Source: an uncultured archaeon (GTDB taxonomy: Archaea > Aenigmatarchaeota > Aenigmatarchaeia > QMZP01 > JACQNV01). Taken from it: a stretch of DNA of 64,000 nucleotides. The notes below the pieces were generated by a model that worked only from the letters and a program-made list of their open reading frames with translations, searched no databases and was not told where the DNA came from. The first letter of the stretch is position 1; each line of letters opens with the position of its first letter. Positions 24,285 through 61,884 of the stretch are shown here, piece after piece. Location: positions 28,346 through 92,345 of the forward strand of contig CAZVWU010000001.1 of assembly GCA_964631205.1 (NCBI GenBank), in the 5' to 3' direction. The translations under genes were made by a program, and so were the position numbers.

Positions 24285-25844
24285 TTACCCTTCCCCCATA
24301 AATTTCTTTATCCTTGGCGGTATATCATCCCCATGCTGGTTGACTATTTGCTCGTACATCTGGTGAGCAATCATTGTGGCCAGCAAGATGCCTGTGCCAG
24401 TCCCTATGGCAAAAGTGAAGTCTGCAAAAGCGGCAAGTGCGCCTATCGCCGCGCCCCCCAGAACAGTTAGGTGGGGTATATACCGGTTGAGAACGCCTTC
24501 TATTATCCTTGGATCCCTCCTATGGCCTGCCACATACATTCCAACAGAGTCAATCTGATCGGCCACAGATTTGGAATCCATGCCAGATGTTTGTACCCAG
24601 AAGATCGCGAAAACTACTGAGCCCCCTATAAGGAAAAGTGAATACGTGACCATCCTTGCAAGATCATCTATGGTTATTGCAGTTAAGGATGTCACCCCGG
24701 AGGAAACAGAGAGCCCATACCAGACTAGGATGCCAAGAACAGCGAATGCTCCAATGTATTTCAAACCCTGCTTTTTTGAAAAATGAAGGAATAATGCCCC
24801 GATTATTGCAAAGAGGCCTATGAAAACCATAAGGCTGGAAAGTGGAATTGATTGTGGAGGGAAAAGGTAGTAAATTATCCCGCCTGTGGGGTTCCCCTGG
24901 GTATCAAACGTCCCCAGTATGGAAGAGCCGCCCCTTTGGCCAAGCATCCTTGCAACAAGCTGGACGTTCGCCAGTAGAGCCGAGACTAATATCACAGGCA
25001 TGTTTGATGTGTAGAAAAATTTCAGCGGCCATCTCCTTCCAAAACCGCTAAGCGCGCCAAAAGCAAGAGGCACCTCGACCCTGATAAGCTGGGAATATAT
25101 TGCTATTACTATAACAAGCAACGTAGCTATCACCGGCAGGAACCCCTGCAATAAAGCCTCCACAGGGCTTGAGCCAAGGGCTAATATTCCGTAAGGCAGG
25201 CGCCCTGCTGGCGGGTTTGCCGCATCTGGAAGGCAGGTATCTATCTGGCCTGGAGTACAGCCAATTGTAAGCGGATTGAAAATGCCTATAATCATCCCCT
25301 TTGCAACGCCCGCTAGTATGAAAAGCCCTACTCCAGACCCAAAGCCCCATTTTGTGACAACCTCATCCATGAATAAAATAATTATCCCGCCTAAAGCGAG
25401 CTGCATCATTACTAAAGGAGCCTGGCCGGGAATACTGGGTACAGCCCCGAATCCGACAAATATGTAAGCCTCCAAAAATGAGAATGCTATTGCCAGTAAT
25501 TTTTGTGTCCCTTGGAATCGCTTTTTCCCTGTCTCTGATTTCAGGTCCCATGGAATTATTTTAGATCCTACCAAAAGCTGCAAGATTATTGATGCCGTAA
25601 CTATAGGACCTATACCTAATGTAACCAAACTCCCAAAACTGGAGCCGAGGACTATTTCCAAAAACTGCAGCCTTGGAACATTTGCCTTGTCAACCCCATA
25701 AACAACCACCTGTGTCATGAGCAGGTAGATGAACAGTATAAGTGATGTCCATTTCAGCTTTTCTGAGAACGAAAGTTTCTTGATAGGGCTAGCAACTCCT
25801 GGCAGCTTTTTTAAAATCCTGTCGTATTTTTCTGCAAATGCCAT
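24285..25844 (-). CDS. secY: Protein translocase subunit SecY
   Basis: 519 aa, 10 TM. It is the canonical gene downstream of L15. Confidence 0.9.
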   Translation of the reverse strand: MAFAEKYDRILKKLPGVASPIKKLSFSEKLKWTSLILFIYLLMTQVVVYGVDKANVPRLQFLEIVLGSSFGSLVTLGIGPIVTASIILQLLVGSKIIPWDLKSETGKKRFQGTQKLLAIAFSFLEAYIFVGFGAVPSIPGQAPLVMMQLALGGIIILFMDEVVTKWGFGSGVGLFILAGVAKGMIIGIFNPLTIGCTPGQIDTCLPDAANPPAGRLPYGILALGSSPVEALLQGFLPVIATLLVIVIAIYSQLIRVEVPLAFGALSGFGRRWPLKFFYTSNMPVILVSALLANVQLVARMLGQRGGSSILGTFDTQGNPTGGIIYYLFPPQSIPLSSLMVFIGLFAIIGALFLHFSKKQGLKYIGAFAVLGILVWYGLSVSSGVTSLTAITIDDLARMVTYSLFLIGGSVVFAIFWVQTSGMDSKSVADQIDSVGMYVAGHRRDPRIIEGVLNRYIPHLTVLGGAAIGALAAFADFTFAIGTGTGILLATMIAHQMYEQIVNQHGDDIPPRIKKFMGEG

Positions 25845-25898
25845 ACCAATCTAACAAATTAAAGTATTATAATTGTTCTGTTTAAATAAAGGGGTAGC

Positions 25899-26861
25899 TT
25901 ATTTTTCAACATCCCTGCAGTCATATTTTTCTGTCTCCAATATTTTTATCGGCGGATAAGTGTAAAGCTTTAGCCCGTTTGTGAGCCATTCAAATTGGTA
26001 GACTGCAACAGAGGGGTTTTCGAAGATCCCGAATATTGTTATTTGGTTTATATCTGGATCTGTCTTGAGCGCAGCAGGCAGGTTTGCAGATGCCAGGAGG
26101 TCTTGATTGCCATAATAATAAATCCTTGACTTGAGGTTTGCCTGCTGGCCTTGGGGGCCTATTGAAAGGACGACAGCAGAGTTTTTTACAAGCTCCCTTA
26201 TGTTAGAAGCGGTCTCGTCATTTATTTGTATAAGTATCGAATAGCCCCCCAACCCATTCGGGTCTGGAAAAACTTTTGTAAGTTCCGGGTCGTCTATTAC
26301 AGCAACAACATCCTTTCCCTCAAAGCCAAAAACCTGGAATATTGGGGAATTGTCCTTGAAATCATAATATTTTAAGTTTATGCCATCCAGATTTACGCTC
26401 TCGCTTATTTTCAAAGCCTTTCCTGCAACCTCCATATCATTAGCGCTGGTATATTTTACTGGGTATTTTTTATCTTTTATAGCCAGCACAGTATCCCCGT
26501 TTCCATCCTGCTCAGCATGGAGGCCTATGTATGCTTTGAAATCCACATTCCCGAAGATCTTCTTTTCTGTTGCGTTATCTGCATTAAGGGCATACAATTT
26601 GAATTTCTTGGATTCCTCTTCTATATCCAGATCGCATCTTGTGAATAAATTGCATTTTGAGTTGAGTGCCAGTGTCGCCTCAGCCTTTTGAAGAAGAGTC
26701 CCATCAAGGTCAACTGTGTAAGCCTTGGCTTCACCAGTGCCTTTGCATATTGAGGCAAGCGCACTGTTTACTCCTGGAGTTTTAACTGCTGTTTTTCCTC
26801 CTGACGTGCAGCCGCTGATTATGATTATTCCAATCAAAAAAACTGCCAGGAAAATTCTCAT
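25899..26861 (-). CDS. Secreted lipoprotein of unknown function (lipobox IISGC)
   Basis: 320 aa with signal peptide MRIFLAVFLIGIIIISGC. Its start overlaps the L15 stop (ATGA). Confidence 0.45.
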   Translation of the reverse strand: MRIFLAVFLIGIIIISGCTSGGKTAVKTPGVNSALASICKGTGEAKAYTVDLDGTLLQKAEATLALNSKCNLFTRCDLDIEEESKKFKLYALNADNATEKKIFGNVDFKAYIGLHAEQDGNGDTVLAIKDKKYPVKYTSANDMEVAGKALKISESVNLDGINLKYYDFKDNSPIFQVFGFEGKDVVAVIDDPELTKVFPDPNGLGGYSILIQINDETASNIRELVKNSAVVLSIGPQGQQANLKSRIYYYGNQDLLASANLPAALKTDPDINQITIFGIFENPSVAVYQFEWLTNGLKLYTYPPIKILETEKYDCRDVEK

Positions 26862-27292
26862 ACTTTTACTGCCTTTCCGCCTGACTTTGCTATCTTTTCT
26901 TCTGCCTTTTGCGAGAAATATTTTGCTTTTATTTCGATAGGCTTTTTCAGGTTTCCGGCTGAAAGGATTTTATCATACCCGTAACTAATAGCATCAAAAG
27001 CCCCCGCAACATTGTTTTTGTCGGCAAGCTTTTGTATGTCCCTCAAGTTTATTGCCATATAACTTGCTTTTATTTCCTTTTCCTTTAGGGACTTGAACCC
27101 CTTGGCCTTTCCCAGGTGCTCCCTGTCAAACCTGAAGAACCATGATTTTTTCTGCTTGAAAGAACCTGCATTGCCCTTGCCACCCTTGGAGCCTTTTCCC
27201 CTGTGCCTTGCTTTGTAGCCGTAGCCATGGCTGTTAGAGCCTCTCATCTTCACAACTTTTTTTGTTTTTCTGGAATTAAGCATATCATGCAC
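26858..27292 (-). CDS. rpl15: Ribosomal protein L15 (uL15)
   Basis: GRGxGSGxGK-like basic N-terminus (GKGSKGGKGNAGS). Confidence 0.85.
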   Translation of the reverse strand: MHDMLNSRKTKKVVKMRGSNSHGYGYKARHRGKGSKGGKGNAGSFKQKKSWFFRFDREHLGKAKGFKSLKEKEIKASYMAINLRDIQKLADKNNVAGAFDAISYGYDKILSAGNLKKPIEIKAKYFSQKAEEKIAKSGGKAVKV

Positions 27293-27333
27293 ACTTTGCT
27301 AAAATGGATTGACATAGATTCTTAGCCTGTTCA

Positions 27334-36413: not shown

Positions 36414-37400
36414 ATGAAAAAAATATCCGCCGATGCTAAACAAAGCATTTTTAAAAAATCAGACGAAATTGCCGGGACAGAAATAAATGGGCATGATTTT
36501 AATGCCGGAACTGATTTGAAAAAAATTCTGGAAAGTTACAAAACATCCGGATTTCAGGCAACCCATTTGCATAAGGCAATCGGGATAATAAAAAAAATGA
36601 GAAAAGAAAATGTGCGGATTTTTCTTGGGTACACGTCAAATATGGTGAGCTCTGGTGTCAGGGAATCAATAAGATATTTGGTTGAGCACAAGCTTGTTGA
36701 TGTTCTGGTGACAACAGCTGGCGGAGTAGAAGAAGATATAATAAAGACTTTCAAGCCCTTTTTGCTTGGAGATTTTAGGGCAGACGGCGCCGAACTGAGG
36801 GAAAAAGGGATAAACAGGATAGGGAACATTTTTGTCCCTAATGACAGATACATCGAATTTGAAAAATTCTTCCAGCCTATTTTAAAGGAACTCCTACAAA
36901 AGCAAAAAAGAAGCGGTGAAATTATATCGCCTTCAGAAATTATAGATATTCTAGGAAGCAAGACAAGCGATAAAAATTCGATCTATTACTGGGCTCATCA
37001 AAAGAAAATCCCTGTTTTCTGTCCGGCATTAATGGACGGTGCTATAGGCGATAATGTTTATTTTTTCAACTTTGAAAAAAACCAGGAATTGAAAATTGAT
37101 ATGGCAAAAGATCACCATAAACTGATAGAATTGGTAATGGAAGCTGAGGATACCGGAATAATCATATTAGGTTCAGGCGTAGTAAAACATACGATCTGCA
37201 ATGCTAATATGTTCAGGGAGGGTGCAAAATACGCAGTTTATATTAACACAGCGCCTGAATATGACGGCTCAGATTCTGGTGCAGAACCAGACGAAGCTAA
37301 ATCCTGGGGAAAAATACAGGCAAGAGGGGAGACTGTAAAAGTTTTCGGCGACGCAACAATAATTTTCCCTCTTGTTGTTGCCGGTAGTTTTGTAGATTAA
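36414..37400 (+). CDS. dys: Deoxyhypusine synthase
   Basis: 328 aa with the DHS core (VDVLVTTAGGVEEDIIK, GSGVVKH). Confidence 0.85.
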   Translation: MKKISADAKQSIFKKSDEIAGTEINGHDFNAGTDLKKILESYKTSGFQATHLHKAIGIIKKMRKENVRIFLGYTSNMVSSGVRESIRYLVEHKLVDVLVTTAGGVEEDIIKTFKPFLLGDFRADGAELREKGINRIGNIFVPNDRYIEFEKFFQPILKELLQKQKRSGEIISPSEIIDILGSKTSDKNSIYYWAHQKKIPVFCPALMDGAIGDNVYFFNFEKNQELKIDMAKDHHKLIELVMEAEDTGIIILGSGVVKHTICNANMFREGAKYAVYINTAPEYDGSDSGAEPDEAKSWGKIQARGETVKVFGDATIIFPLVVAGSFVD

Positions 37401-37406
37401 ATTGAT

Positions 37407-37732
37407 ATGAATGATGTTATCATAAGAAAAGGAAAAATGTTCGGAAAAGGGTTTTTGCCGATAGGGATTTCCAAAAAGGCGAAATTGTGATAAAATATAA
37501 TCTCAAACCTTTGGCAAAAGAAGAATTTGATAATCTCCCTGAAAAAGAAAAGAATTTTACCCATACACATTGGGGTGTAATTTATCTTTATTCTTCTCCT
37601 GAAAGATATGTAAATCACTCTTCTAATCCAAATACAAAACAGGACTTAAAAAATAAATGTGATATTGCAATAAGAGATATAAAAAAAGCAGAAGAAATAA
37701 CAACAGATGCGACAAAAGATGACACCGCCTGA
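37407..37732 (+). pseudogene. SET-domain protein gene interrupted by a frameshift at a G3/T5 homopolymer run
   Basis: Frame A reads MNDVIIRKGKMFGKG and stops soon after. Frame B then continues VFADRDFQKGEIVIKYN...ERYVNHSSNPNT..., which carries the SET hallmarks (GxG, NHS.NPN). Frame B has no start codon upstream. Confidence 0.5.
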
Positions 37733-37778
37733 CTACAATCATTTGTTTAGAAATTCAAGAATTAAAAATAATTTTGAT

Positions 37779-39074
37779 ATGAAAATCGCAATTATCGGCG
37801 GGACTGGTTATGTAGGTCTGTGCACAGGGCTGGGATTTGCAGTAAAAGGGCACCATGTTATTTGCGTTGGAAGAAATAAAGAGAAAATAGAGAAACTTAA
37901 ATCAGGGAAATCAATTATCTATGAACCTTTGGTTGGCACATATCTGGCAACTGTTCTTGAAAAGAAAAATTTTGAGCCGACAACTGACATGGATTATGCT
38001 ATAAAGAATTCTGATGTGATTTTTATTTCTGTTGGCACGCCGAGCAAGGCAGACGGGAGCATAGACACAGGCGATATAGAAGCTGTTTCAATGGAGATAG
38101 GCAGGCTGATGGCCTCAAGGGACTCTTATTTTGTTGTGGTTGTCAAATCGACTGTTGTCCCGGAAACAACAGAAAAGGTTGTAATACCAGAACTTGAAAA
38201 ACTTTCTTCCAAAAAAGCCGGTGAGGGTTTTGGCGTTTGCATGAATCCTGAATTTCTTAGGGAGGGGAAGGCATTGGACGATTTTCTAAATCCAGACAGG
38301 ATTGTAATAGGCGAATTGGATAAAAAATCAGGCGATATTGTGCAGGACCTGTATAAAAACTTTGATTCCCCTATAATCAGGACAAACCTGAAAACAGCTG
38401 AGATGATAAAGTATGCATCAAACGCATTCCTGGCGACAAAAATTTCTTTTGCAAACGAGGTTGGGAACATCTGTAAGATTCTTGGAATAGACAGTTATGA
38501 AGTGATGAATGGAGTTGGTCTTGATAAAAGAATAGGGAGGCATTTTTTGGATTCTGGAATTGGGTGGGGCGGGAGCTGCTTCCCAAAAGATATAGCGGCA
38601 ATTATAGCCAAGGCAAAGGAAATGGCCTATAACCCTGAAATATTGGATACGATAACAAAAACAAATGACCAGCAGCCGCTGAAATTAGTTGAAATTCTGC
38701 AGGGAAGGCTTCATTATTTAAGAGGGAAAAGGATAGCTGTTCTTGGGCTCGCATTTAAAGCCGATACAGATGACATCAGGGACACCAAATCAGCTCCAGT
38801 CATCGAAAAACTCCTGGAACTCGGAGCGGAGGTTGTAGCCTATGATCCAAAGGCAATCCAAAATTTCAGGGTCATGTTCCCTAAAATAAACTATGCTGAA
38901 TCATGTAAGGCCGCATTGGAAGGCGCAGATGCCTGCCTGATACTTACAGATTGGCAGGAATTCAGGAAGCTTGAAAATAATGATTTTGATTTGATGAAAA
39001 ACAGAGTAATAGTGGAAGGGAGAAGGGTTCTGGATAAGAAAAATGTTTCGGGTTTCGAGGGGATATGCTGGTAA
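37779..39074 (+). CDS. ugd: UDP-glucose/GDP-mannose 6-dehydrogenase family
   Basis: N-terminal Rossmann IAIIGGTGYVGL and catalytic GGSCFPKD. Confidence 0.8.
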   Translation: MKIAIIGGTGYVGLCTGLGFAVKGHHVICVGRNKEKIEKLKSGKSIIYEPLVGTYLATVLEKKNFEPTTDMDYAIKNSDVIFISVGTPSKADGSIDTGDIEAVSMEIGRLMASRDSYFVVVVKSTVVPETTEKVVIPELEKLSSKKAGEGFGVCMNPEFLREGKALDDFLNPDRIVIGELDKKSGDIVQDLYKNFDSPIIRTNLKTAEMIKYASNAFLATKISFANEVGNICKILGIDSYEVMNGVGLDKRIGRHFLDSGIGWGGSCFPKDIAAIIAKAKEMAYNPEILDTITKTNDQQPLKLVEILQGRLHYLRGKRIAVLGLAFKADTDDIRDTKSAPVIEKLLELGAEVVAYDPKAIQNFRVMFPKINYAESCKAALEGADACLILTDWQEFRKLENNDFDLMKNRVIVEGRRVLDKKNVSGFEGICW

Positions 39075-39179
39075 TTTTTAGTGGCGGGTAGTTTAGATTT
39101 ATTGATGATGCATCAAAGTTTGTTTATAAATACTGATACACTATATATACTAAAATATTTGAAAGGGGAGTGAAAACTA

Positions 39180-39224
39180 GGATGAAATTGATCTCAAAAA
39201 TCAGATAAGAGATTAATTTCCAAC
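39180..39224 (+). repeat. Degenerate H-like hairpin in the psmA 5' leader
   Basis: GAAATTGATC...GATTAATTTCCAAC-CGATAT-ATG. The TTTCCAAC-N6-ATG tail is shared with the aIF5A leader. Confidence 0.4.
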
Positions 39225-39230
39225 CGATAT

Positions 39231-39932
39231 ATGCAACCAGTACCTCCAAGCTACATGGCTTACGACAGGGCAATAACTGTTTTTTCGCCTGACGGAAGGC
39301 TTTTGCAAGTAGAGTATGCAAGGCAGGCGGTGAAGAAAGGTCCCACATCTCTTGGCATAAGGGTTCAAGATGCAGTTATATTAGGCGCAATCAAAACCAG
39401 TGCGCCGCTTCTTGCAGAAGACTCTCACAAGAAAATATATGAGGTAGACGATCACATCGGCGTCGCGATGTCAGGCCTGATAGCGGATGCAAGGGACCTT
39501 GTTGAACTTGCAAGGGTGAAGTCCCAGATAAGCAAAATAACCTTCGGGACTCCAATATCAGTCAGCACACTCACGAAATACGTAGCAGACAGGAAGCATA
39601 TCGTCACCCAGTATGCAGGCGTGAGGCCCTTCGGGGTCGGCTTCCTGATAGGCGGCGTTGACGAGACAGGAGCCAAGCTTTTTGAGACAGACCCTTCTGG
39701 CACAGTCATAGAATGGGTTGCCCAAGCAATAGGCAGGGGAGCTGAAAAGGCAAAGAAGGCGCTTGAAAAAGATTACAAACCAAAGATGTCTGCTGAAGAT
39801 GCTGTAAAGCTTGCGTGGGATGCCCTGAAAACTGCAGAGAAAGAAGCAGGTGCGAAAGATTTGGAAATTGCAGTTATAAAAAACAATGAGTTCAAAAGAC
39901 TTTCAGACAGCGAGATGGCCAGAATGGTTTAA
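39231..39932 (+). CDS. psmA: Proteasome subunit alpha
   Basis: YDRAITVFSPDGRLLQVEYA, the classic alpha-subunit N-terminus. Confidence 0.9.
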   Translation: MQPVPPSYMAYDRAITVFSPDGRLLQVEYARQAVKKGPTSLGIRVQDAVILGAIKTSAPLLAEDSHKKIYEVDDHIGVAMSGLIADARDLVELARVKSQISKITFGTPISVSTLTKYVADRKHIVTQYAGVRPFGVGFLIGGVDETGAKLFETDPSGTVIEWVAQAIGRGAEKAKKALEKDYKPKMSAEDAVKLAWDALKTAEKEAGAKDLEIAVIKNNEFKRLSDSEMARMV

Positions 39933-39935
39933 GGG

Positions 39936-40040
39936 TTTAGGTTGCACTATGCAATATGGTTTCTGTTAACATTCGGACTGGATATCACCAGAAGGCAGGA
40001 ACTTGCTGTTTAGGTTGCACTATGCAATATGGTTTCTGTT
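39936..40040 (+). repeat. 32-bp perfect direct repeat (TTTAGGTTGCACTATGCAATATGGTTTCTGTT) x2 with a 41-nt spacer
   Basis: Copies are at 39936-39967 and 40009-40040. The second copy contains the sdo1 start codon (ATGGTTTCTGTT). Confidence 0.7.
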
Positions 40041-40733
40041 GACCAGGCCGTTATAGCAAGAATAGTAAAACAAGGCATTACTTTTGAAATACTAGTCGAC
40101 CCTGAAAAGGCTCTAGAGTTCAGGAAAGGAAAGCCTTATTCTATAGAGAATATCTTAGCAATCAACCAGGTTTTCAAGGATTCCAAAAAAGGCGAAAGAG
40201 TTTCAAACCAGGAGCTGAAAAAAGGTTTCGAGACAACTGACATATTAAAGGTTGCAGAAATTATTATCAAGGAAGGCGAAGTCCAGCTTACCACAGAGCA
40301 GAGAAGGAAGATGGTGGAGGAGAAGAGGATTGAAATAGCCGGCATAATCTCAAGGCAAGGCGTTGACCCGAAAACACATGCCCCCCACCCTCAGCAAAGG
40401 ATACTAAATGCGATGGAACAAGCCCATGTTGATATAGACCCTTTCAGGCAGGCAAAAGACCAGGTACCGCAAATTATTAATAGGTTGCAACCAATAATAC
40501 CCATAGCTTTTGAAAAGGTCACTCTGGCTATAAAAATCCCAGTCGAGAATGCCGGAAAAGCTGGTTATGCTATAAGGGAATTTGGCGAAGTAGAAAAAGA
40601 GGAATGGACTTCTGCTTCTTGGATTGCAATGCTCACAATCCCTGCAGGCATGCAGACAGCTTTGTACGATAAAATAAATGGCCTGACAGCAGGCAGGGCA
40701 GAGGTCAAAATTTTGAAGAGGGAGAGCGTGTGA
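40029..40733 (+). CDS. sdo1: Ribosome maturation protein SDO1/SBDS
   Basis: 234 aa. It is in the conserved position between psmA and rrp4. Confidence 0.8.
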   Translation: MVSVDQAVIARIVKQGITFEILVDPEKALEFRKGKPYSIENILAINQVFKDSKKGERVSNQELKKGFETTDILKVAEIIIKEGEVQLTTEQRRKMVEEKRIEIAGIISRQGVDPKTHAPHPQQRILNAMEQAHVDIDPFRQAKDQVPQIINRLQPIIPIAFEKVTLAIKIPVENAGKAGYAIREFGEVEKEEWTSASWIAMLTIPAGMQTALYDKINGLTAGRAEVKILKRESV

Positions 40734-40772
40734 AATTTTTATATATATGAGAAACTGAAGGAGGAAGATAAT

Positions 40773-41564
40773 ATGGCAGAAATAGAAGAAATTAAAGAGG
40801 AAACAAAAAATGGCTTGATAAAAGCCGAAAGGGAGTTTGTGGTTCCGGGAGACAAAATAGTGAGCTCGATGGAGTTTTTGCCTGGAAAAAATTGTTTTAG
40901 GGATGGCGAATCTATTTTTTCAAAAAGGCTTGGTGTGGTGCACCTTGAAAACCATGTGATATCTGTTGTCCCTCTTTCTGGGGGCTACATGCCTCAGATT
41001 GGAGACATGGTTATAGGAGAAATTGAGGATGTTCAGGCAAATGGATGGTTTGTAAGCCTTGAAGCGCCTTACAGCTCTTATCTGTCTCTATCCGGCGTAA
41101 GGGGATATATAAGGCAAGGAACAGACCTCACAAAAATTTACAATGTGGGCGACCTTATTTATGTAAAAATTGTTTCTGTAAGCAAGCAAGGAGTTGGCCT
41201 CTCAATGCAAGATGACCGTGCAAGGAAATTAAACGGAGGGAAGGTGATATTAGTTGAGCCTGTGAAGGTTCCGCGAGTTATAGGAAAACAGGGTTCGATG
41301 ATAAGCCTTATAAAAAGAAAGACAGGAAGCAACATAATAGTCGGCCAGAATGGCATTATTTGGCTCCAGGGAGGGGATGAAACACTTGCAACTACAGTAA
41401 TAAAAATGGTTGAAAGGGAATCGCACAAGGAAGGATTGACAGATACAATTGAAAAGTTCCTTAATGAAAATGCGCCAACAAACCTTGTGCAGCCAGCAAT
41501 AAGCAATGGCGTTGAGCCGAAAGCTGAAACTGAATACCAGACGAATATCGAACAGAAGGAGTGA
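40773..41564 (+). CDS. rrp4: Exosome subunit Rrp4 (S1 plus KH)
   Basis: S1 domain (GDMVIGEIEDVQANGWFV) and KH (VIGKQGSMISLI). A GGAGG lies 10 nt upstream. Confidence 0.85.
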   Translation: MAEIEEIKEETKNGLIKAEREFVVPGDKIVSSMEFLPGKNCFRDGESIFSKRLGVVHLENHVISVVPLSGGYMPQIGDMVIGEIEDVQANGWFVSLEAPYSSYLSLSGVRGYIRQGTDLTKIYNVGDLIYVKIVSVSKQGVGLSMQDDRARKLNGGKVILVEPVKVPRVIGKQGSMISLIKRKTGSNIIVGQNGIIWLQGGDETLATTVIKMVERESHKEGLTDTIEKFLNENAPTNLVQPAISNGVEPKAETEYQTNIEQKE

Positions 41565-41568
41565 TAAT

Positions 41569-42282
41569 ATGGCTATAAAAAGAATAGATGGAAGAAAGCA
41601 TGAAGATATAAGGCCCATTGTAATGCAGGCAGGGATTCTTGAAAGGGCGCCAGGATCTGGCTTTGTAAAAATGGGCAGGACAACAGCATTGGCAGCAGTC
41701 TATGGGCCAAAAAAGTTGTTTTCAAAGCATCAGCAGGACGCTAACAAAGCGGTTTTGGAATGCCAATACCTGATGGCCCCATTTTCAACAGACGAAAGGG
41801 TCAGGCCCGGCCCAAACAGAAGGAGCACAGAAATATCAAAGGTCATGAGACAGGCACTGGAACCGGCAATATATCTGGAAGAATTCCCGCGGGCAATAAT
41901 AGACATCCATGTAGTGATTTTGCAGGCAGAGGCAGGCACAAGGACAGCAGCAATAAATGCAGCTTCAATAGCTCTTGCAGATGCAGGGATTCCGATGAGG
42001 GATCTTGTTGCGAGCGTCTCTGCAGGGAAAATTGAAGGGCAATACGTGCTTGACCTTGTTGGAAAGGAGGAAGATATGACCGAATGCGATTTGCCAATAG
42101 CTTACATGCCAAGGGAAAAGAAATTCTCTCTATTGCAGATGGACGGCGATATGCCATTAAAGGATGTGAAGAATGTCATTAACCTTGCAACCAAAGGGTG
42201 TGAACTGCTTTATGAGAAGCAGAAAGAAGCGTTGAAGGAGAGATGGGTAGGGCCTGCGAAGGCAGTCTCACTTGTTGTTTGA
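41569..42282 (+). CDS. rrp41: Exosome subunit Rrp41 (RNase PH)
   Basis: Starts RIDGRKHEDIRPI. RNase PH fold. Confidence 0.85.
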   Translation: MAIKRIDGRKHEDIRPIVMQAGILERAPGSGFVKMGRTTALAAVYGPKKLFSKHQQDANKAVLECQYLMAPFSTDERVRPGPNRRSTEISKVMRQALEPAIYLEEFPRAIIDIHVVILQAEAGTRTAAINAASIALADAGIPMRDLVASVSAGKIEGQYVLDLVGKEEDMTECDLPIAYMPREKKFSLLQMDGDMPLKDVKNVINLATKGCELLYEKQKEALKERWVGPAKAVSLVV

Positions 42283-42293
42283 ATGGAGGGATT

Positions 42294-43058
42294 ATGGGTA
42301 AAACAGACTACTTGATTGATCTGGCAAAACTGTCTAGCCGAGTTGACGGCAGAAAACCTGATGAATTCAGGAAAATAGAAATCCAGAGAGGCGTCATAGA
42401 AAAAGCAGAAGGTTCTGCCCTTGTAAAACTTGGCTCTACGCAAGTAATTGCCGGCGTAAAAATGGAAGTTAAGGAACCCTTCTCCGACACACCGAATGAA
42501 GGCGTCCTTATGGTAGGCGCAGAGTTTTCGCCTATAGCATCCCCAGAGTTCAGCCCAGGCCCCCCAGGCGAGAATGCAATAGAATTGGCAAGGATAGTGG
42601 ACCGTGGAATAAGAGAAAGCCATGCGATTGATGTCGAGAAACTGTGCATTGTTGAAAAGGAAAAGGTCTGGATAGTAAACATAGATATCCACATATTAGA
42701 CGACAGCGGAAACCTTATAGACGCAAGCGCCGTTGCAGCGATATCAGCCTTGCTGGACACAAAGTTCCCTAAGTATCAGGAAGAGAAAGTCATATATGAG
42801 GAAAAGACCAAAAAACAGCTTCCCCTGACATGCAAGCCTATTGCAGTCACTCATGTGAAGATTGGAGAAAGCCTTTTTATAGACCCTATGGCAGACGAGG
42901 AATCGGCGTCAACTGCAAGGCTTACAGTAGGCACAAAAGACAATGGAAATATCTGTGCATTGCAAAAAGGGGGGGTTGAAGGGCTTACAATGAAACAGAT
43001 AGAAGAAATATTTGAAAAGTCCATAGAAGCAGGGAAACAGTTAAGAAAGCTGCTCTAA
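42294..43058 (+). CDS. rrp42: Exosome subunit Rrp42 (RNase PH-like, inactive)
   Basis: Starts RVDGRKPDEFRKIEI. It follows rrp41. Confidence 0.8.
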   Translation: MGKTDYLIDLAKLSSRVDGRKPDEFRKIEIQRGVIEKAEGSALVKLGSTQVIAGVKMEVKEPFSDTPNEGVLMVGAEFSPIASPEFSPGPPGENAIELARIVDRGIRESHAIDVEKLCIVEKEKVWIVNIDIHILDDSGNLIDASAVAAISALLDTKFPKYQEEKVIYEEKTKKQLPLTCKPIAVTHVKIGESLFIDPMADEESASTARLTVGTKDNGNICALQKGGVEGLTMKQIEEIFEKSIEAGKQLRKLL

Positions 43059-43115
43059 GCGGATGAAGTCATGGCATATGACCATTTATACCATTAGGAT
43101 AAGATAAAGAAGATT

Positions 43116-43331
43116 ATGGTAAAAACAAGAAAAGTTGGCTCGACAGGAAGGTTTGGGGTGAGGTATGGCCTGAAAATAAGGAAAAATATCCTTGCAATAG
43201 ACAACCTTAGAAAAAGCCAGAAAAAATGCCCTAGCTGCCTAAAGCTAACAGTGAAAAGGCAATCGCCGGGAATATGGAGTTGCAGATCATGCGGCTTGAA
43301 GGTCGCTGGGAGGGCTTACCAGATATCATAA
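43116..43331 (+). CDS. rpl37ae: Ribosomal protein L37Ae (eL43)
   Basis: Contains GRFGVRYG and the zinc ribbon CPSC...CRSCG. Confidence 0.9.
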   Translation: MVKTRKVGSTGRFGVRYGLKIRKNILAIDNLRKSQKKCPSCLKLTVKRQSPGIWSCRSCGLKVAGRAYQIS

Positions 43332-43352
43332 GTATAGCAAGTTTCGTATGTT

Positions 43353-43499
43353 ATGTTAGAGTACAAGTGCGTCGCCTGCGGAAAGATAATATCAATGGAC
43401 CTGAAAACAGCAAAAAAAGTTATCTGTCCGTATTGCGGCTATAGGATAATAGAAAAAGTCAGGGGGAAGGGGATTAAGAAGATTTCAACAGGAACCTAG
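43353..43499 (+). CDS. rpoP: DNA-directed RNA polymerase subunit P (Rpo12/RpoP)
   Basis: 48 aa, MLEYKCVACGKIISMD...CPYCGYRI. It is under 60 aa and so absent from the ORF track. Confidence 0.7.
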   Translation: MLEYKCVACGKIISMDLKTAKKVICPYCGYRIIEKVRGKGIKKISTGT

Positions 43500-43561
43500 A
43501 ATGCGCAGAATAGATTTTCTACCTATCAACTCTTTTAACCCACTTAATATTTGCACAGTTT

Positions 43562-43897
43562 ATGGCTACAGAAAATAAGCCTCAACAGGCCCAGCAGCTT
43601 TTGGAGCAGGCGCAGATGCATCAGCAGCAGCTTCAAAGCCTCGTTGCACAGAAAGAAGCCCTGAACATGCAGACAACAGAGATCCAGAAGGCGCTAACAG
43701 AGCTTAGCACAACAAAAGATGATGTCTACAAAGTTGCAGGCCCAATACTGATAAAAACTGATCTTGAGTCGGTGAAAAAAGAACTGGGCGATAAACTCGA
43801 TTTTATTAGCCTCAGGATTAAAACACTTGAAAAGAGTGAAAAAAGGCTGAAAGAGCAGTTTGAGGAAATAAGCCAAAAGCTCTCAAAAATGGCCTGA
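43562..43897 (+). CDS. pfdB: Prefoldin beta subunit
   Basis: Coiled-coil, beta-hairpin, coiled-coil, about 110 aa. It is in the conserved position after rpoP. Confidence 0.75.
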   Translation: MATENKPQQAQQLLEQAQMHQQQLQSLVAQKEALNMQTTEIQKALTELSTTKDDVYKVAGPILIKTDLESVKKELGDKLDFISLRIKTLEKSEKRLKEQFEEISQKLSKMA

Positions 43898-44630: not shown

Positions 44631-45317
44631 TTAACTGATAGGGATTCCAGCAGTTTTCATTACCTCTATTTTTCCTATTTCCAAAAACCTGACAGGGTAA
44701 ATGCTGGACACATCTTTCTTCAATTTTTTTTGGTAGGTGCCTGCAACAATATTTTTAACAAACTCATCTATTGTTGATTTTGATGCCTCATTTTTCAAAA
44801 AATTAATCACAAAAGCCCTGGATTTTTTCTGGATGTTGGATTCCGATTTCCTGTTCAGAATCATGGATGTGGTGATCTGGAGCTTCCATCCGTCCTTTGT
44901 GTCAGCCATATCTATCGCCTCAAGCTTCTGCAGGCCACTCCTAACACTTCTCGCTATATATTCAGGGCTGCATTCAAGCCCCCAGAAATATGTAGAAACC
45001 ACCTTCTCTTTCACATCGTCCACTTTAAAAATAAGTTTTAGGTGGCTTTTTGTCTTATCATTTGTGAGTTGGGGCACTCTTACCTTGATTGTCCTGCCAA
45101 AAAGATGGGACTGGTCTGTTGCAGGTGTTTCGTATAGGAATGTCTCGCCGAACATCTTAGGAGACAAAATACTGAACCAATCCTTTCCCTTCCACTTTTT
45201 TAGAGACTCTGATTTTGTTACCTGTGGTTTCTCCACTTCCTTCTGCTGCTTTTCCTGATCCTGCTTCTGCCTGTCCTTGTCTTTCTGCTCCAATCTTTTC
45301 AGATCCTGCTTTGCCAT
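44631..45317 (-). CDS. rps3ae: Ribosomal protein S3Ae (eS1)
   Basis: KKWKGKDWFSILSPKMFGE block. The K/E-rich N-terminus overlaps the 3' end of the DHH-family gene. Confidence 0.8.
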   Translation of the reverse strand: MAKQDLKRLEQKDKDRQKQDQEKQQKEVEKPQVTKSESLKKWKGKDWFSILSPKMFGETFLYETPATDQSHLFGRTIKVRVPQLTNDKTKSHLKLIFKVDDVKEKVVSTYFWGLECSPEYIARSVRSGLQKLEAIDMADTKDGWKLQITTSMILNRKSESNIQKKSRAFVINFLKNEASKSTIDEFVKNIVAGTYQKKLKKDVSSIYPVRFLEIGKIEVMKTAGIPIS

Positions 45318-46794
45318 AATTATCAATCCTAACCTCTTTATTATCTGCCTTTATATTTATATTCTTAATAGAAGCCTCCTTCAACAAGGCATCTACCCTA
45401 TTTATAAAAATTTCAACAGCATCTGCAGGTATGGATGCTCCAGCTGCGCCAGCATGGCCGCCGCCTTCGCCGCCAACTTCTTTGGATGCTATCTCCATCA
45501 CCTCTTTCAGGTTTATACCATTTGATACTTCTTTGTCTGTTGCCCTTGCAGAGATTTTAAACCCCTCCTCTGACTGGGAAATTCCTATAAGCGGCTTGCT
45601 TATCCCATTGTTTTTATGCAGAATTGAAATCACATTTGAAATTATGTGCTCTGATATTCTGCTGCCGGCAAGGAGGTAAAGCCCGTTTTCGGTCTCCCTT
45701 TTTACTTTTTCCCTGTTCTGCTCAAGCCAGCTGAGTGCAGAACCTATTGTTCTTCTGTAATCATTAAGAATATTTTTTATTTTCTCTTCAGTTTTTTTAT
45801 CCCCAAGGCAAAGTTGCAGCCCTAAATGCGCATTACCCATTTTCCCGCATGCATTTATCATTGTCGCAAATTCTGCAGCATCCCTGAGGTCTTCTGGTCT
45901 GTCGACAAGATCATACACATCCCCGAAAATCCACTCAGGGTTTTCATGGTTCGCATGTACCCTCTGGATTATTATTCCAGAGGCAAGCTTCCTCTGCTCC
46001 TCAACCGAAAGGTCAGAAAGCGTCCTCCATGAGCCGTCCTCCCTTTTCATCTCTATCCCAATCTGCTGCAGAAAAGCAACAGCCCCCATCTGGGACCCAG
46101 AAACTCCAGGTATGAACGGGTTAATTGAATATTCAAGGGCCTTGTAGATTGGTCTTGTTGTCCTTCCCCAGACCCTCAACCCTTTTCTTGAGCTGACTTT
46201 ATTAGCATCTATAGCATCTTTCAAAATAATTTTATTGATCCCGTCCAGGCCCCAGCCGTCGCCTGAGGAGTCTGCCTGAGAATCTCCTATTGCGCCGATT
46301 ATTGCCAGCTCGGCCATATCCATATTCGAATTGTCAACAGCCTTCGAAACCAGATAGCTTGTCCCTGAGCTCGAGATGCTGCCCATAATTCTAAAATCTA
46401 TTGGGTTCACCTGAATGATATGACTTTCGGGGATTCCCTGCGGCTGGTGGTGGTCAATTATGATTATTTTTTTGTCCTTCATGGAATTCAAAAATCCCAG
46501 CTGGCCTGACCCAAAATCCAAAAAAACAAGAAGCCCTTCCTTGCTCTCCCCTACTTTCAACTGGTTTGCCCTTGTCAGCTGTTTGTAAATGCTCACATGG
46601 AAAGGCTTTCCCTCCCTCAGCAAAGTTTTCACAAAAATTGAAGTCGCGGTTATTCCGTCGGCATCATACTGACCGAAAACCCTTATAGTATCGGAATAAG
46701 ATTTCACAAGCCCCGCTGCTTTTTTTGCCTGGCTGACCAAAGAATCCAGACCTTCAATCATAGAATACTTATATAAGAAGAAGTTTATATTCAA
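45157..46794 (-). CDS. DHH-family phosphoesterase (archaeal RecJ/Cdc45/GAN-like)
   Basis: Contains DADGITATSI, DHH (IIIDHHQP) and a DHHA1-like GGGH region. The C-terminal tail is Gly/Ala/Glu-rich. Confidence 0.7.
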   Translation of the reverse strand: MNINFFLYKYSMIEGLDSLVSQAKKAAGLVKSYSDTIRVFGQYDADGITATSIFVKTLLREGKPFHVSIYKQLTRANQLKVGESKEGLLVFLDFGSGQLGFLNSMKDKKIIIIDHHQPQGIPESHIIQVNPIDFRIMGSISSSGTSYLVSKAVDNSNMDMAELAIIGAIGDSQADSSGDGWGLDGINKIILKDAIDANKVSSRKGLRVWGRTTRPIYKALEYSINPFIPGVSGSQMGAVAFLQQIGIEMKREDGSWRTLSDLSVEEQRKLASGIIIQRVHANHENPEWIFGDVYDLVDRPEDLRDAAEFATMINACGKMGNAHLGLQLCLGDKKTEEKIKNILNDYRRTIGSALSWLEQNREKVKRETENGLYLLAGSRISEHIISNVISILHKNNGISKPLIGISQSEEGFKISARATDKEVSNGINLKEVMEIASKEVGGEGGGHAGAAGASIPADAVEIFINRVDALLKEASIKNINIKADNKEVRIDNYGKAGSEKIGAERQGQAEAGSGKAAEGSGETTGNKIRVSKKVEGKGLVQYFVS

Positions 46795-46816
46795 ATTCTG
46801 AAAATAATTTGGAAAT

Positions 46817-47269
46817 TTATTTCACTAACAGCACAGCCCTTTCCGGATCGTACTTCCAGCCTGATGGAAGGGTTTTTGTCCTAATGTAGTATTTTGCGAG
46901 CCTCCTGATTTTTGATTCTGTCAGCTCCAAACCCCTGTATGAGGTGTAATCCTTCTTGTTTTTTTGGAGATGGAATCGAAGGTTGACTGCCTTTTTCAGA
47001 AGATTAATCATGTCTTCAGGAAGTTCTGGGTAGGTTTTGTTATCCTTCAGTATTGTTGTGACAGGCTTGGATTTTACAGCCTTTACTGAAGGGACTCCGT
47101 ACTGGTCCCTTAAAACCAAGCCTATCTTTGCCGACTGCATGCCCTGCCTTGAAAGTTTCAAAACAATCTCCTCAACTTCCTTTGGCGAATATGTGACCCA
47201 AGGGGCTATTTTTTGTAGCGGCTTTTTGCTTCCATGCTTCCCCTTTTTCCTTGAATGCATCCGTGCCAT
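46817..47269 (-). CDS. rps15: Ribosomal protein S15 (uS15, S13e type)
   Basis: 150 aa, starts MARMHSRKKGKHGS. Confidence 0.85.
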   Translation of the reverse strand: MARMHSRKKGKHGSKKPLQKIAPWVTYSPKEVEEIVLKLSRQGMQSAKIGLVLRDQYGVPSVKAVKSKPVTTILKDNKTYPELPEDMINLLKKAVNLRFHLQKNKKDYTSYRGLELTESKIRRLAKYYIRTKTLPSGWKYDPERAVLLVK

Positions 47270-53324: not shown

Positions 53325-53531
53325 GATCATATATTGGCTACAATCTTCTTTAATAACTGCACAAAATCTTCTGCTACTGTTTCCAGCATCGCTATCTCCC
53401 TGCATATTTCTCTATATCCAAATTTTAGATCCCCATACATTCCCCTCCCCTGATAATAGTCTCCCATGTTTGTTCTATTTCTTTGTCCAACTCATACAGC
53501 CTTCTCTGATAAAAGTCCAGCTTTTCCAAAT

Positions 53532-53735
53532 TCATAAAACCACCTCCGTTTTTGCCCCTATGAGGAGGAAGTTTTTCTTCAGATCAAAAAACAAAGTAAC
53601 AGAATCCCCTTTTTTTAAATCAAAATTCTTCCTCAAGAAAGCTGGTATAGAAATGCGACCTTTACTATCGACTTTTACAAAAACAGACTTTACACTAGGC
53701 TTATCCCTCTCGCTTCCTTGTGTGAAGATACTCAC
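53532..53735 (-). CDS. AbrB/SpoVT-family DNA-binding protein (possibly antitoxin-like)
   Basis: Swapped-hairpin motif VKVDSKGRISIPAFLRKNFDLKKGDSVTL. Confidence 0.5.
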   Translation of the reverse strand: MSIFTQGSERDKPSVKSVFVKVDSKGRISIPAFLRKNFDLKKGDSVTLFFDLKKNFLLIGAKTEVVL

Positions 53736-60329: not shown

Positions 60330-61121
60330 TTAAACAATTATCGTACTTTTCTGATAAAGCAAAGGGAGACAATCTTGTCTTAATCTAAATTTCGTTCCAT
60401 GATTATGTCCTGTGCGAGCATCGAAATCTATCAATATTTTTCCAGAGTCTATTGCTTTCAAAAAACCTTCAAAATTAAATTTTTCCAACATCATAACTTT
60501 TGAATATTTGTAGAATTCTAGGTTACCTTCCTTTTTGACTTCTGCTTGAACATAAAAACAGTTTAGAAGCTTGGTACCAGCTTTATGTTCTAGATCATCG
60601 AAACCCCAATAAGGTTGCGGTTCTAATTCTTTCAAACCTACGCGTTCTTTAACAGATTTAAGCCAGTTCGTGTGTCGTACATCAACTGCCTTATAATCAA
60701 AAGATATAATTATCTTCCTTTCTTTTCTATTGATTATAACCATGAAACCGCGATCACTTCTTGATAAACCATGAATAGTCTGTCTAAAACTCATTTCATC
60801 TTTTGGGTAGTCTAATCCAGCCTCTTCGTGAGGCCAACCATACTTTGGCAAAAGTATTTGTGGTACAAATCGGAAGGCTCTTGGTGATGGCTCAATGTGA
60901 AATAATGTTGTTAAAGATGAGGAATTAAGACGCTGTGCTTTCAATTCCCATTCAGCGGCATTAGGTATTGGTAAATTATTTTCTTTTATACCAAGTAAAT
61001 CCTCAAGAGTATTACCAATTCCACCATGATTACCACTACGACTATTGAGTATCCAGCCTTTCTCTGATATCTCTTTCAACTTTTCAATCAATATTTGTTT
61101 TGTATAAATTATCGTTCCCAT
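60330..61121 (-). CDS. Type II restriction endonuclease, MvaI/BcnI family
   Basis: The N-terminal block SGNHGGIGNTLEDLLGIKENNLPIP is the MvaI/BcnI hallmark. The start is the internal Met MGTIIY. Confidence 0.65.
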   Translation of the reverse strand: MGTIIYTKQILIEKLKEISEKGWILNSRSGNHGGIGNTLEDLLGIKENNLPIPNAAEWELKAQRLNSSSLTTLFHIEPSPRAFRFVPQILLPKYGWPHEEAGLDYPKDEMSFRQTIHGLSRSDRGFMVIINRKERKIIISFDYKAVDVRHTNWLKSVKERVGLKELEPQPYWGFDDLEHKAGTKLLNCFYVQAEVKKEGNLEFYKYSKVMMLEKFNFEGFLKAIDSGKILIDFDARTGHNHGTKFRLRQDCLPLLYQKSTIIV

Positions 61122-61122
61122 A

Positions 61123-61869
61123 TTATAGCAATTTAGATTGAGATAATTGTTTTTTAATTCGCTCTTGGGCCATTTTACAATATTCTGGCGAAATATCAAT
61201 ACCTATATAGTTTCTTTTGAAATTAATAGCCGATATCGCAGTTGTTCCAGATCCCATGAATGGATCAAGTATAATTTTTGAACAGGTTGATGAAACAACC
61301 CTGTCAATTAAATTAACTGGAAATGCGGCAGGATGATCATTTTTCATCTCTTGGGTAAATTCCCAAACATCGCCATGGGAATTTGCTTTTGGTGCAAGCT
61401 TAAAATTCTTTTTTGCTATTAAATAGATTACTTCATATGTTGGAAGAAAATATCCAGGGTTAAAATTAAGTCCACCTTTTCTTTTCCAAATTATAATTTG
61501 CCTAACAGGAAATCCAATAAGTATATCTTGCCTATCTTGTAGAACTCCATCCTGAACACGCCATTTGTGATTGTAAAAAATTGCACCATTATCAGAAACT
61601 AGCCTCATCATTTCTGTAAGACAGTCTCTCTGCCACTTAACATATTTTTCATGCGGCATACAATCATCATGATTTGTATAGCCGTTTTGCAAGGCTGCGT
61701 TTGCCCATTTACCACCTCGCCCATCTTTCATACCGTTACCAGTGGAGTTTTTTAGGTTGTATGGGGGAGAAGTAATAATCAAGTCTATGGTTTCGTTGGG
61801 TATTTTTTTCATTACCTCTATAGCATCTCCACAAATGATCTTATTTAGGAAATCTTCTGGGAATTTCAT
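61123..61869 (-). CDS. DNA methyltransferase (N4-cytosine/N6-adenine, beta class), cognate of the MvaI/BcnI-like restriction endonuclease
   Basis: Motif IV IITSPPYN comes first and motif I DPFMGSGTT follows. Its stop abuts the endonuclease start. Confidence 0.8.
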   Translation of the reverse strand: MKFPEDFLNKIICGDAIEVMKKIPNETIDLIITSPPYNLKNSTGNGMKDGRGGKWANAALQNGYTNHDDCMPHEKYVKWQRDCLTEMMRLVSDNGAIFYNHKWRVQDGVLQDRQDILIGFPVRQIIIWKRKGGLNFNPGYFLPTYEVIYLIAKKNFKLAPKANSHGDVWEFTQEMKNDHPAAFPVNLIDRVVSSTCSKIILDPFMGSGTTAISAINFKRNYIGIDISPEYCKMAQERIKKQLSQSKLL

Positions 61870-61884
61870 AATTTACTAATCGAA

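Follow-up and report, generated by a model that had tools for sequence, protein, structure and literature searches.

The 64,000-nucleotide stretch of DNA analyzed here (the window) comes from a DPANN archaeon of groundwater and contains a gene for a small SET-domain (lysine methyltransferase-like) protein (37407 to 37732, + strand) that is one base short, and we consider it probable that this is a real and recent 1-bp deletion, which has produced either a pseudogene or a polymorphic null allele. The first 15 codons (MNDVIIRKGKMFGKG, 37407 to 37451, +) lie in one reading frame, frame A, and contain motif I of the SET domain (G13-K14-G15). Codons 16 to 108 lie in another, frame B (37451 to 37732, +), reading VFADRDF...ERYVNHSSNPN...EEITTDATKDDTA as far as a TGA stop codon at 37730 to 37732. 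An earlier reading made from the sequence alone (the sequence-only reading) had proposed a SET gene with a one-base frameshift at ggaaaagggtttttgcc, and this was borne out by Pfam, by a profile of the protein family, by the predicted fold, and by the DNA of intact orthologs.

The break falls at aaaa ggg ttttt (37445 to 37456, +), where the window alone has a gap, one column wide, in an alignment of ortholog DNA (A2). Frame A had been thought to terminate right after GKG, but it continues out of register for 12 further codons (FLPIGISKKAKL, 37452 to 37490, +), which are unlike any family member, to a TGA at 37488 to 37490, for a total product of 27 aa. Frame B is open from 37415 to its stop and from 37451 reads VFADRDFQKGEIVIKYNLKPL; it carries VFADRDFQKGEIVIKYN and ERYVNHSSNPNT, followed by the C-terminal TKDDTA. 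The continuation is not in the +1 frame, as had been stated, but in the −1 (equivalently +2) frame relative to frame A: the DNA is one base short, and following the SET gene would therefore take a ribosomal −1 shift, not a +1 shift. The description of frame B as having no start codon holds for ATG, which is absent, but a start is possible at the first start-type codon, the internal GTG 37487, which forms GTGA together with the frame A stop that it overlaps. It is from this GTG that the public gene call (P0053) takes an 81-aa ORF (37487 to 37732, +), without about the first 27 residues of the protein, so that it has neither motif I nor the two N-terminal β-strands of the model.

Adding one base after 37451 restores a 108-aa protein; the absent base is the third, or wobble, position of the codon for Gly15 (codon 15). 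The suggestion that an extra G would restore GKGVFADRDF was correct in that one added base does so; the identity of that base as G is the parsimonious choice, because the junction in orthologous loci L002, L012, and L064 reads AAAGGGGTTTTTGC (GGAAAAGGGGTTTTTGC), differing from the window by one added G. The closest cluster mate of the window protein, P0121 (locus L002), belongs to another species and another gene context, and its junction reads GGAAAAGGGGTTTTTGCC. Since Gly15 is GGA, GGT, or GGC in most orthologs, the deletion did not necessarily occur inside the G run.

The Pfam SET profile (PF00856) matched the restored 108-aa protein at 50 bits (E = 4e-13) over positions 1 to 103 of 105, spanning the junction, and the similarity to SET claimed earlier thus stands up in an HMM search. 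The 81-aa ORF alone scored 29.9 bits over profile positions 62 to 103, against a curated cutoff of 22.4 bits. Against a family profile built from 121 homologs with the window left out, the first 15 residues of frame A scored 15.2 bits (positions 2 to 16), the full 27-aa frame A peptide no higher than those 15 residues, the open frame B 184 bits (positions 9 to 108), and the restored protein 210 bits (positions 2 to 108). By these scores and positions, the two pieces are collinear, adjacent parts of one family member, and a chance resemblance to SET is ruled out by the Pfam and family-profile scores together. The frame A start agrees with the family consensus MNDVxIxKGNLFGKG. Motif I (GxG) directly precedes the break in frame A, leaving the rest of the domain in another frame, and conservation among the 121 homologs is at least 90% for its K14 and G15 and likewise for R67, Y68, N70, H71, S72, P75, and N76 of motif III (ERYVNHSSNPN). 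In a search of 5.8 billion proteins, 455 homologs at 70 to 80% identity were found, most often 108 aa long; all that carry a source name come from Woesearchaeota or Nanoarchaeota, and family members range from 107 to 110 aa. NCBIfam gave no match. An AlphaFold2 model of the restored protein (pLDDT 82.5, pTM 0.69) drew 324 Foldseek matches in the PDB at E ≤ 0.001, of which the best 50 of 324 are all SET-domain proteins, headed by vSET (3kma_A; TM 0.75/0.77 over 105 columns) and then the SET domains of MLL, SUV420H, and EZH2. Profile, motifs I and III, and predicted fold support placing the subfamily within the SET superfamily, with a putative methyltransferase activity.

Comparison with orthologs, which the sequence-only reading had looked to, shows the ortholog DNA to be the window sequence plus one base at the break. 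Among GTDB species representatives, 77 of 81 loci are intact, the gene being one ORF of 100 aa or more; of the other four, three are uninformative (contig edges or masked bases) and one (L036) is disrupted differently. A further 19 loci came from JGI metagenomes; among the informative ones, the sole exception to an intact gene is L095, whose sequence is the same as that of L036. A break at the window's site is absent from all of these approximately 100 orthologous loci, which come from DPANN archaea and CPR bacteria. L036 (1 to 420) and L095 (1 to 400), from a Nanoarchaeia MAG (SMAG_U8103), have unalignable, stop-containing sequence in place of the first ~25 codons and no in-frame start; the rest of the SET gene shares 79% identity with the window protein. 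Each contig ends ~130 nt upstream, and an assembly-edge effect is possible. Owing to this unalignable, start-less 5′ end and a different gene context, the L036 disruption is regarded as an event separate from that in the window.

The best-surviving alternative to a real deletion is a consensus or assembly error, in which the gene is intact (GGA AAA GGN GTT TTT) and one base was dropped during assembly. The window strain is represented in the searched collection by two contigs, the public contig of 192,737 bp and a Logan contig of 3,254 bp (L001), which is identical to window 36711 to 39964, frameshift included. L001 derives from run SRR8863434 (PRJNA512237), an Illumina HiSeq 2500 data set from groundwater in Ohio whose original assembly was made with idba_ud. 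On this instrument, indel errors are rare in runs of 3 to 5 bases. A real mutation is favored over an error because two assemblies of Illumina data agree, base for base over all 3,254 bp. The two assemblies probably share one read set, however, and a read-level error at low coverage could be common to both. It also suits an error that the break lies at short homopolymers (G3 then T5), that the frameshift stands alone in a contig assembled from a metagenome, and that the strain is known from one sample. Exact look-ups of the 81-aa ORF and of the neighboring dehydrogenase returned only the 192,737-bp contig and SRR8863434, and an exact-protein look-up of the neighboring deoxyhypusine synthase returned no record. 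In JGI metagenomes, the junction DNA pattern had no match, and a protein-guided scan found relatives at ≤79% identity only.

The remainder of the window argues against a generally error-prone assembly, as each of the 30 additional ORFs examined with Pfam is unsplit and spans its profile from end to end. Two apparent splits (30032/30371 and 54986/55292) were examined and set aside: one consists of shadow ORFs opposite a tyrosyl-tRNA synthetase, assigned by eye from its translation, and the other of uL29 and SUI1, which are distinct genes. A codon-usage scan of the window found a single high-scoring coding segment that has no ATG, the SET frame, which also had the highest coding score upstream of its first start codon. 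Within the SET gene itself there is no sign of secondary decay, whether as extra stops or as excess loss of conserved residues. Of 47 columns conserved at 90% or more, the window deviates at two (K23Q, G95A), which is also the family median, and its mean identity to the family is 0.73, slightly above the median of the other members (0.70). A real deletion must be recent, since no other part of the gene shows decay. An undecayed gene fits an artifact equally well, and for this reason we retain assembly error as a minority explanation, unlikely on the whole but deserving real weight.

We infer that the deletion is carried by the organism's own reads and that the product is non-functional. In such a course of events, the SET gene in a groundwater population would have lost the third base of codon 15, probably by a change from GGGG to GGG. 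Translation from the ATG at 37407 would then leave the SET frame after Gly15 and end 12 codons on, yielding the 27-aa peptide. The remaining 93 codons would be without an ATG and could at best be reached by reinitiation at GTG 37487, giving an 81-aa fragment that would be missing the GxG SAM-binding motif and the first two β-strands. Because the SET frame is lost after Gly15 and the fragment is without the GxG motif and two strands, the gene, as judged from sequence and model, is most likely a null allele with a non-functional product. The event would be an ordinary one of a known kind, inactivating a small accessory gene and sharing with other prokaryotic frameshift pseudogenes and null alleles a 1-base deletion in a conserved gene, intact orthologs, and no recoding signals. 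It matters little beyond annotation: the public 81-aa "SET" call from GTG 37487 is only the 3′ portion of a 108-aa gene with a frameshift, and a pseudogene or frameshift label should be attached to it. A real deletion would mean that at least one DPANN population in groundwater can do without the small SET protein, and the independent disruption in L036 and L095 also points to its dispensability.

Programmed frameshifting, one of the options in the sequence-only reading, fares poorly and appears very unlikely. It would require a −1 slip at A_AAA_GGG (37445 to 37451), or polymerase stuttering, to produce some full-length GKGVFADRDF and so regulate SET dosage. The direction is right, as −1 is what is needed. 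The consensus GKGVFA would result exactly from either a tandem slip on A_AAA_GGG or a slip of the P-site tRNA-Gly, and the gene has no other sign of decay. The frame A site, however, reads GGA AAA GGG TTT, and A_AAA_GGG is not an X_XXY_YYZ heptamer; a perfect heptamer, G_GGT_TTT, exists in the third frame, where a slip would enter frame A, not frame B. A stimulatory RNA structure would be looked for 5 to 9 nt downstream; the only candidate, a small hairpin with a 5-bp stem (37455 to 37482, −8.2 kcal/mol), begins 3 nt past the G run. Its z score is −1.6, 12 of 200 shuffles are as good, and it is not kept in the intact ortholog L002; folds of 76 to 126 nt gave z scores from −0.9 to +0.15. A frameshift at this site occurs in none of the ~100 orthologous loci, and the break is thus unconserved, besides having no in-frame X_XXY_YYZ heptamer and no downstream fold that reached significance. 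The runs known to support transcriptional slippage are far longer than 3 to 5 bases, which tells against polymerase stuttering at this junction. Phase variation of the G tract was likewise rejected, because on general knowledge a run of 3 to 4 bases is too short for it.

Programmed −1 frameshifting is known in archaea, for instance from fucA1 of Saccharolobus solfataricus, where the slippery site is A_AAA_AAT. The window shares with that system the −1 direction and an A-rich site before the shift; unlike it, the window has no in-frame canonical heptamer, no supported stimulatory structure, and no conservation among orthologs. We regard as the most improbable of the readings a variant in which the G3 allele is real and a low, regulated −1 slip on A_AAA_GGG is aided by the 37455 to 37482 hairpin and a rare GGG codon. 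Were it true, recoding would let a DPANN archaeon adjust how much it makes of a SET protein that acts on chromatin or on a host.

A two-piece product is about as improbable as programmed recoding. Here the stop at 37488 to 37490 would be coupled to reinitiation at GTG 37487, and the 81-aa protein would retain some function. The overlap of stop and start as GTGA would permit such coupling, and the 81-aa ORF does exceed the Pfam SET threshold (29.9 versus 22.4 bits), but the match is confined to positions 62 to 103 of the 105-position profile. Motif I and model strands E4-7 and E15-18 are absent, and with them go K14, G15, A18, F22, K24, G25, and E26, each at least 90% conserved; it is these missing N-terminal residues that lead us to weigh a functional fragment no higher than recoding. 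No homolog of 81-aa length was found beyond the same locus.

Returning to the gene as a probable null allele, a further departure from canonical SET domains lies at motif IV, which reads EEITTDA and is without their invariant C-terminal tyrosine. A102 of the restored protein aligns with the last tyrosine of YDY in KMT2D and, by extension of the alignment, with Y105 of vSET. Among the 121 homologs this position is alanine in 107, serine in 10, and Asp, Asn, or Thr in the other 4, with tyrosine in none. The C-terminus of the subfamily is a nearly invariant EEITTDATKDD with no post-SET region (alignment A1; P0001 to P0120). Judged from this alignment, the missing tyrosine is a trait of the subfamily, not damage specific to the window. 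A second frameshift at motif IV, with DY in an overlapping frame, was considered and rejected because EEITTDATKDD is the family consensus. More distant relatives at genome loci L069 and L081 retain TTDY and NHSC. The replacement of the motif IV tyrosine by alanine casts doubt on methyltransferase activity in the subfamily.

In its working and predicted fold, the restored protein may be likened to minimal SET proteins such as vSET (A612L of PBCV-1; PDB 1n3j and 3kma), a viral histone H3K27 methyltransferase of 119 aa and the best structural match of the model. Both are single-domain proteins of ~110 aa without pre- or post-SET regions, both have the GxG and NHS...PN motifs, and their sequences match at E = 8e-4. 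They differ in that identity is only ~25%, Y105 of vSET stands against A102 here, and the window copy is frameshifted. A second point of reference, likened by description, is the stand-alone archaeal SET-domain protein Go1-SET of Methanosarcina mazei, which methylates MC1-α in vitro (Manzur and Zhou 2005, as relayed in PMC3980110). According to PMC3980110, Go1-SET is the one archaeal SET protein to have been characterized and the only one with a known chromatin substrate. The window subfamily differs from it in occurring also in CPR bacteria and in its EEITTDATKDD C-terminus. The sequence-only reading held that loss of the gene would be notable because archaeal SET proteins methylate chromatin proteins; with Go1-SET as the one precedent on which it is based, the motif IV tyrosine missing, and the subfamily also present in CPR bacteria, this argument is weak.

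The subfamily is of greater interest than the frameshift, being short, without the motif IV tyrosine, and common to DPANN archaea and CPR bacteria. Its members at loci L003 to L082, with 55 to 75% identity, occur in DPANN archaeal MAGs of Woesearchaeota, Pacearchaeota, Nanoarchaeota, and Aenigmatarchaeota, and also in many CPR MAGs, including Parcubacteria, Kaiserbacteria, Jorgensenbacteria, Peribacteria, Peregrinibacteria, and others, as well as in Candidatus Megaera venefica and one Chlamydiia MAG. Examples from this cross-domain set are L011, L017, L023, L024, L028, and L071. The GC content of the SET loci ranges from 31 to 52%, and gene contexts differ among the seven loci for which ORFs were listed; neighbors at L023 include HlyD and PGA_cap, consistent with a bacterial contig. 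This distribution suggests horizontal spread across domains among small-celled symbionts. Nothing specific on SET proteins from DPANN or CPR organisms emerged from literature searches.

The SET gene lies between two genes on the same strand. Upstream is an intact deoxyhypusine synthase (36414 to 37400, +; Pfam DS, 394.6 bits, profile positions 2 to 286 of 288), and downstream is a UDP-glucose/GDP-mannose dehydrogenase (37779 to 39074, +) with the Pfam domains UDPG_MGDP_dh_N, UDPG_MGDP_dh, and UDPG_MGDP_dh_C. The public gene call for the dehydrogenase begins at ATG 37719 and overlaps the SET stop; we infer that its start is instead MKIAIIGGTGYVG at 37779. Just downstream of this locus is a classical archaeal exosome neighborhood (39231 to 43894, +) encoding proteasome α, Rrp4, Rrp41, Rrp42, an RpoP-like zinc ribbon (43338 to 43496), and prefoldin β. 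Its Pfam-tested members cover their profiles, with the S1 domain of Rrp4 matched only at positions 2 to 40 of 73. No tRNA or Rfam family was found in the 64-kb window.

Several other features of the window may be recorded. The genes for uL15 and SecY are usually adjacent; in the ribosomal-protein cluster of the window, an ORF of ~320 to 356 aa (25902 to 26969, −) sits between uL15 (26861 to 27298) and SecY (24288 to 25850), with a good coding score and no Pfam match at E ≤ 0.01. At 44634 to 45350 and 45160 to 46821 (−), a DHH/DHHA1 (RecJ/GAN-like) ORF extends ~70 residues beyond its last Pfam domain and overlaps the first possible starts of the downstream eS1 (S3Ae) by up to ~160 nt. At 53330 to 53735 (−), three short ORFs overlap end to start at ATGA-type junctions. 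The first encodes an AbrB/MazE-like domain protein (53535 to 53735), and the short ORFs beginning MNLEKLDFYQRRL and MYGDLKFGYREI, which have no Pfam match, meet at a GGGGAGGGGAATG stretch and may be two halves of a single frameshifted gene. Finally, a type II restriction-modification pair occupies 60330 to 61872 (−), comprising an N4/N6 DNA methylase (61126 to 61872, −; Pfam N6_N4_Mtase, positions 1 to 221 of 221) followed by an MvaI/BcnI-family endonuclease (60330 to 61199, −; profile positions 1 to 227 of 227), whose open frames overlap by 74 nt.
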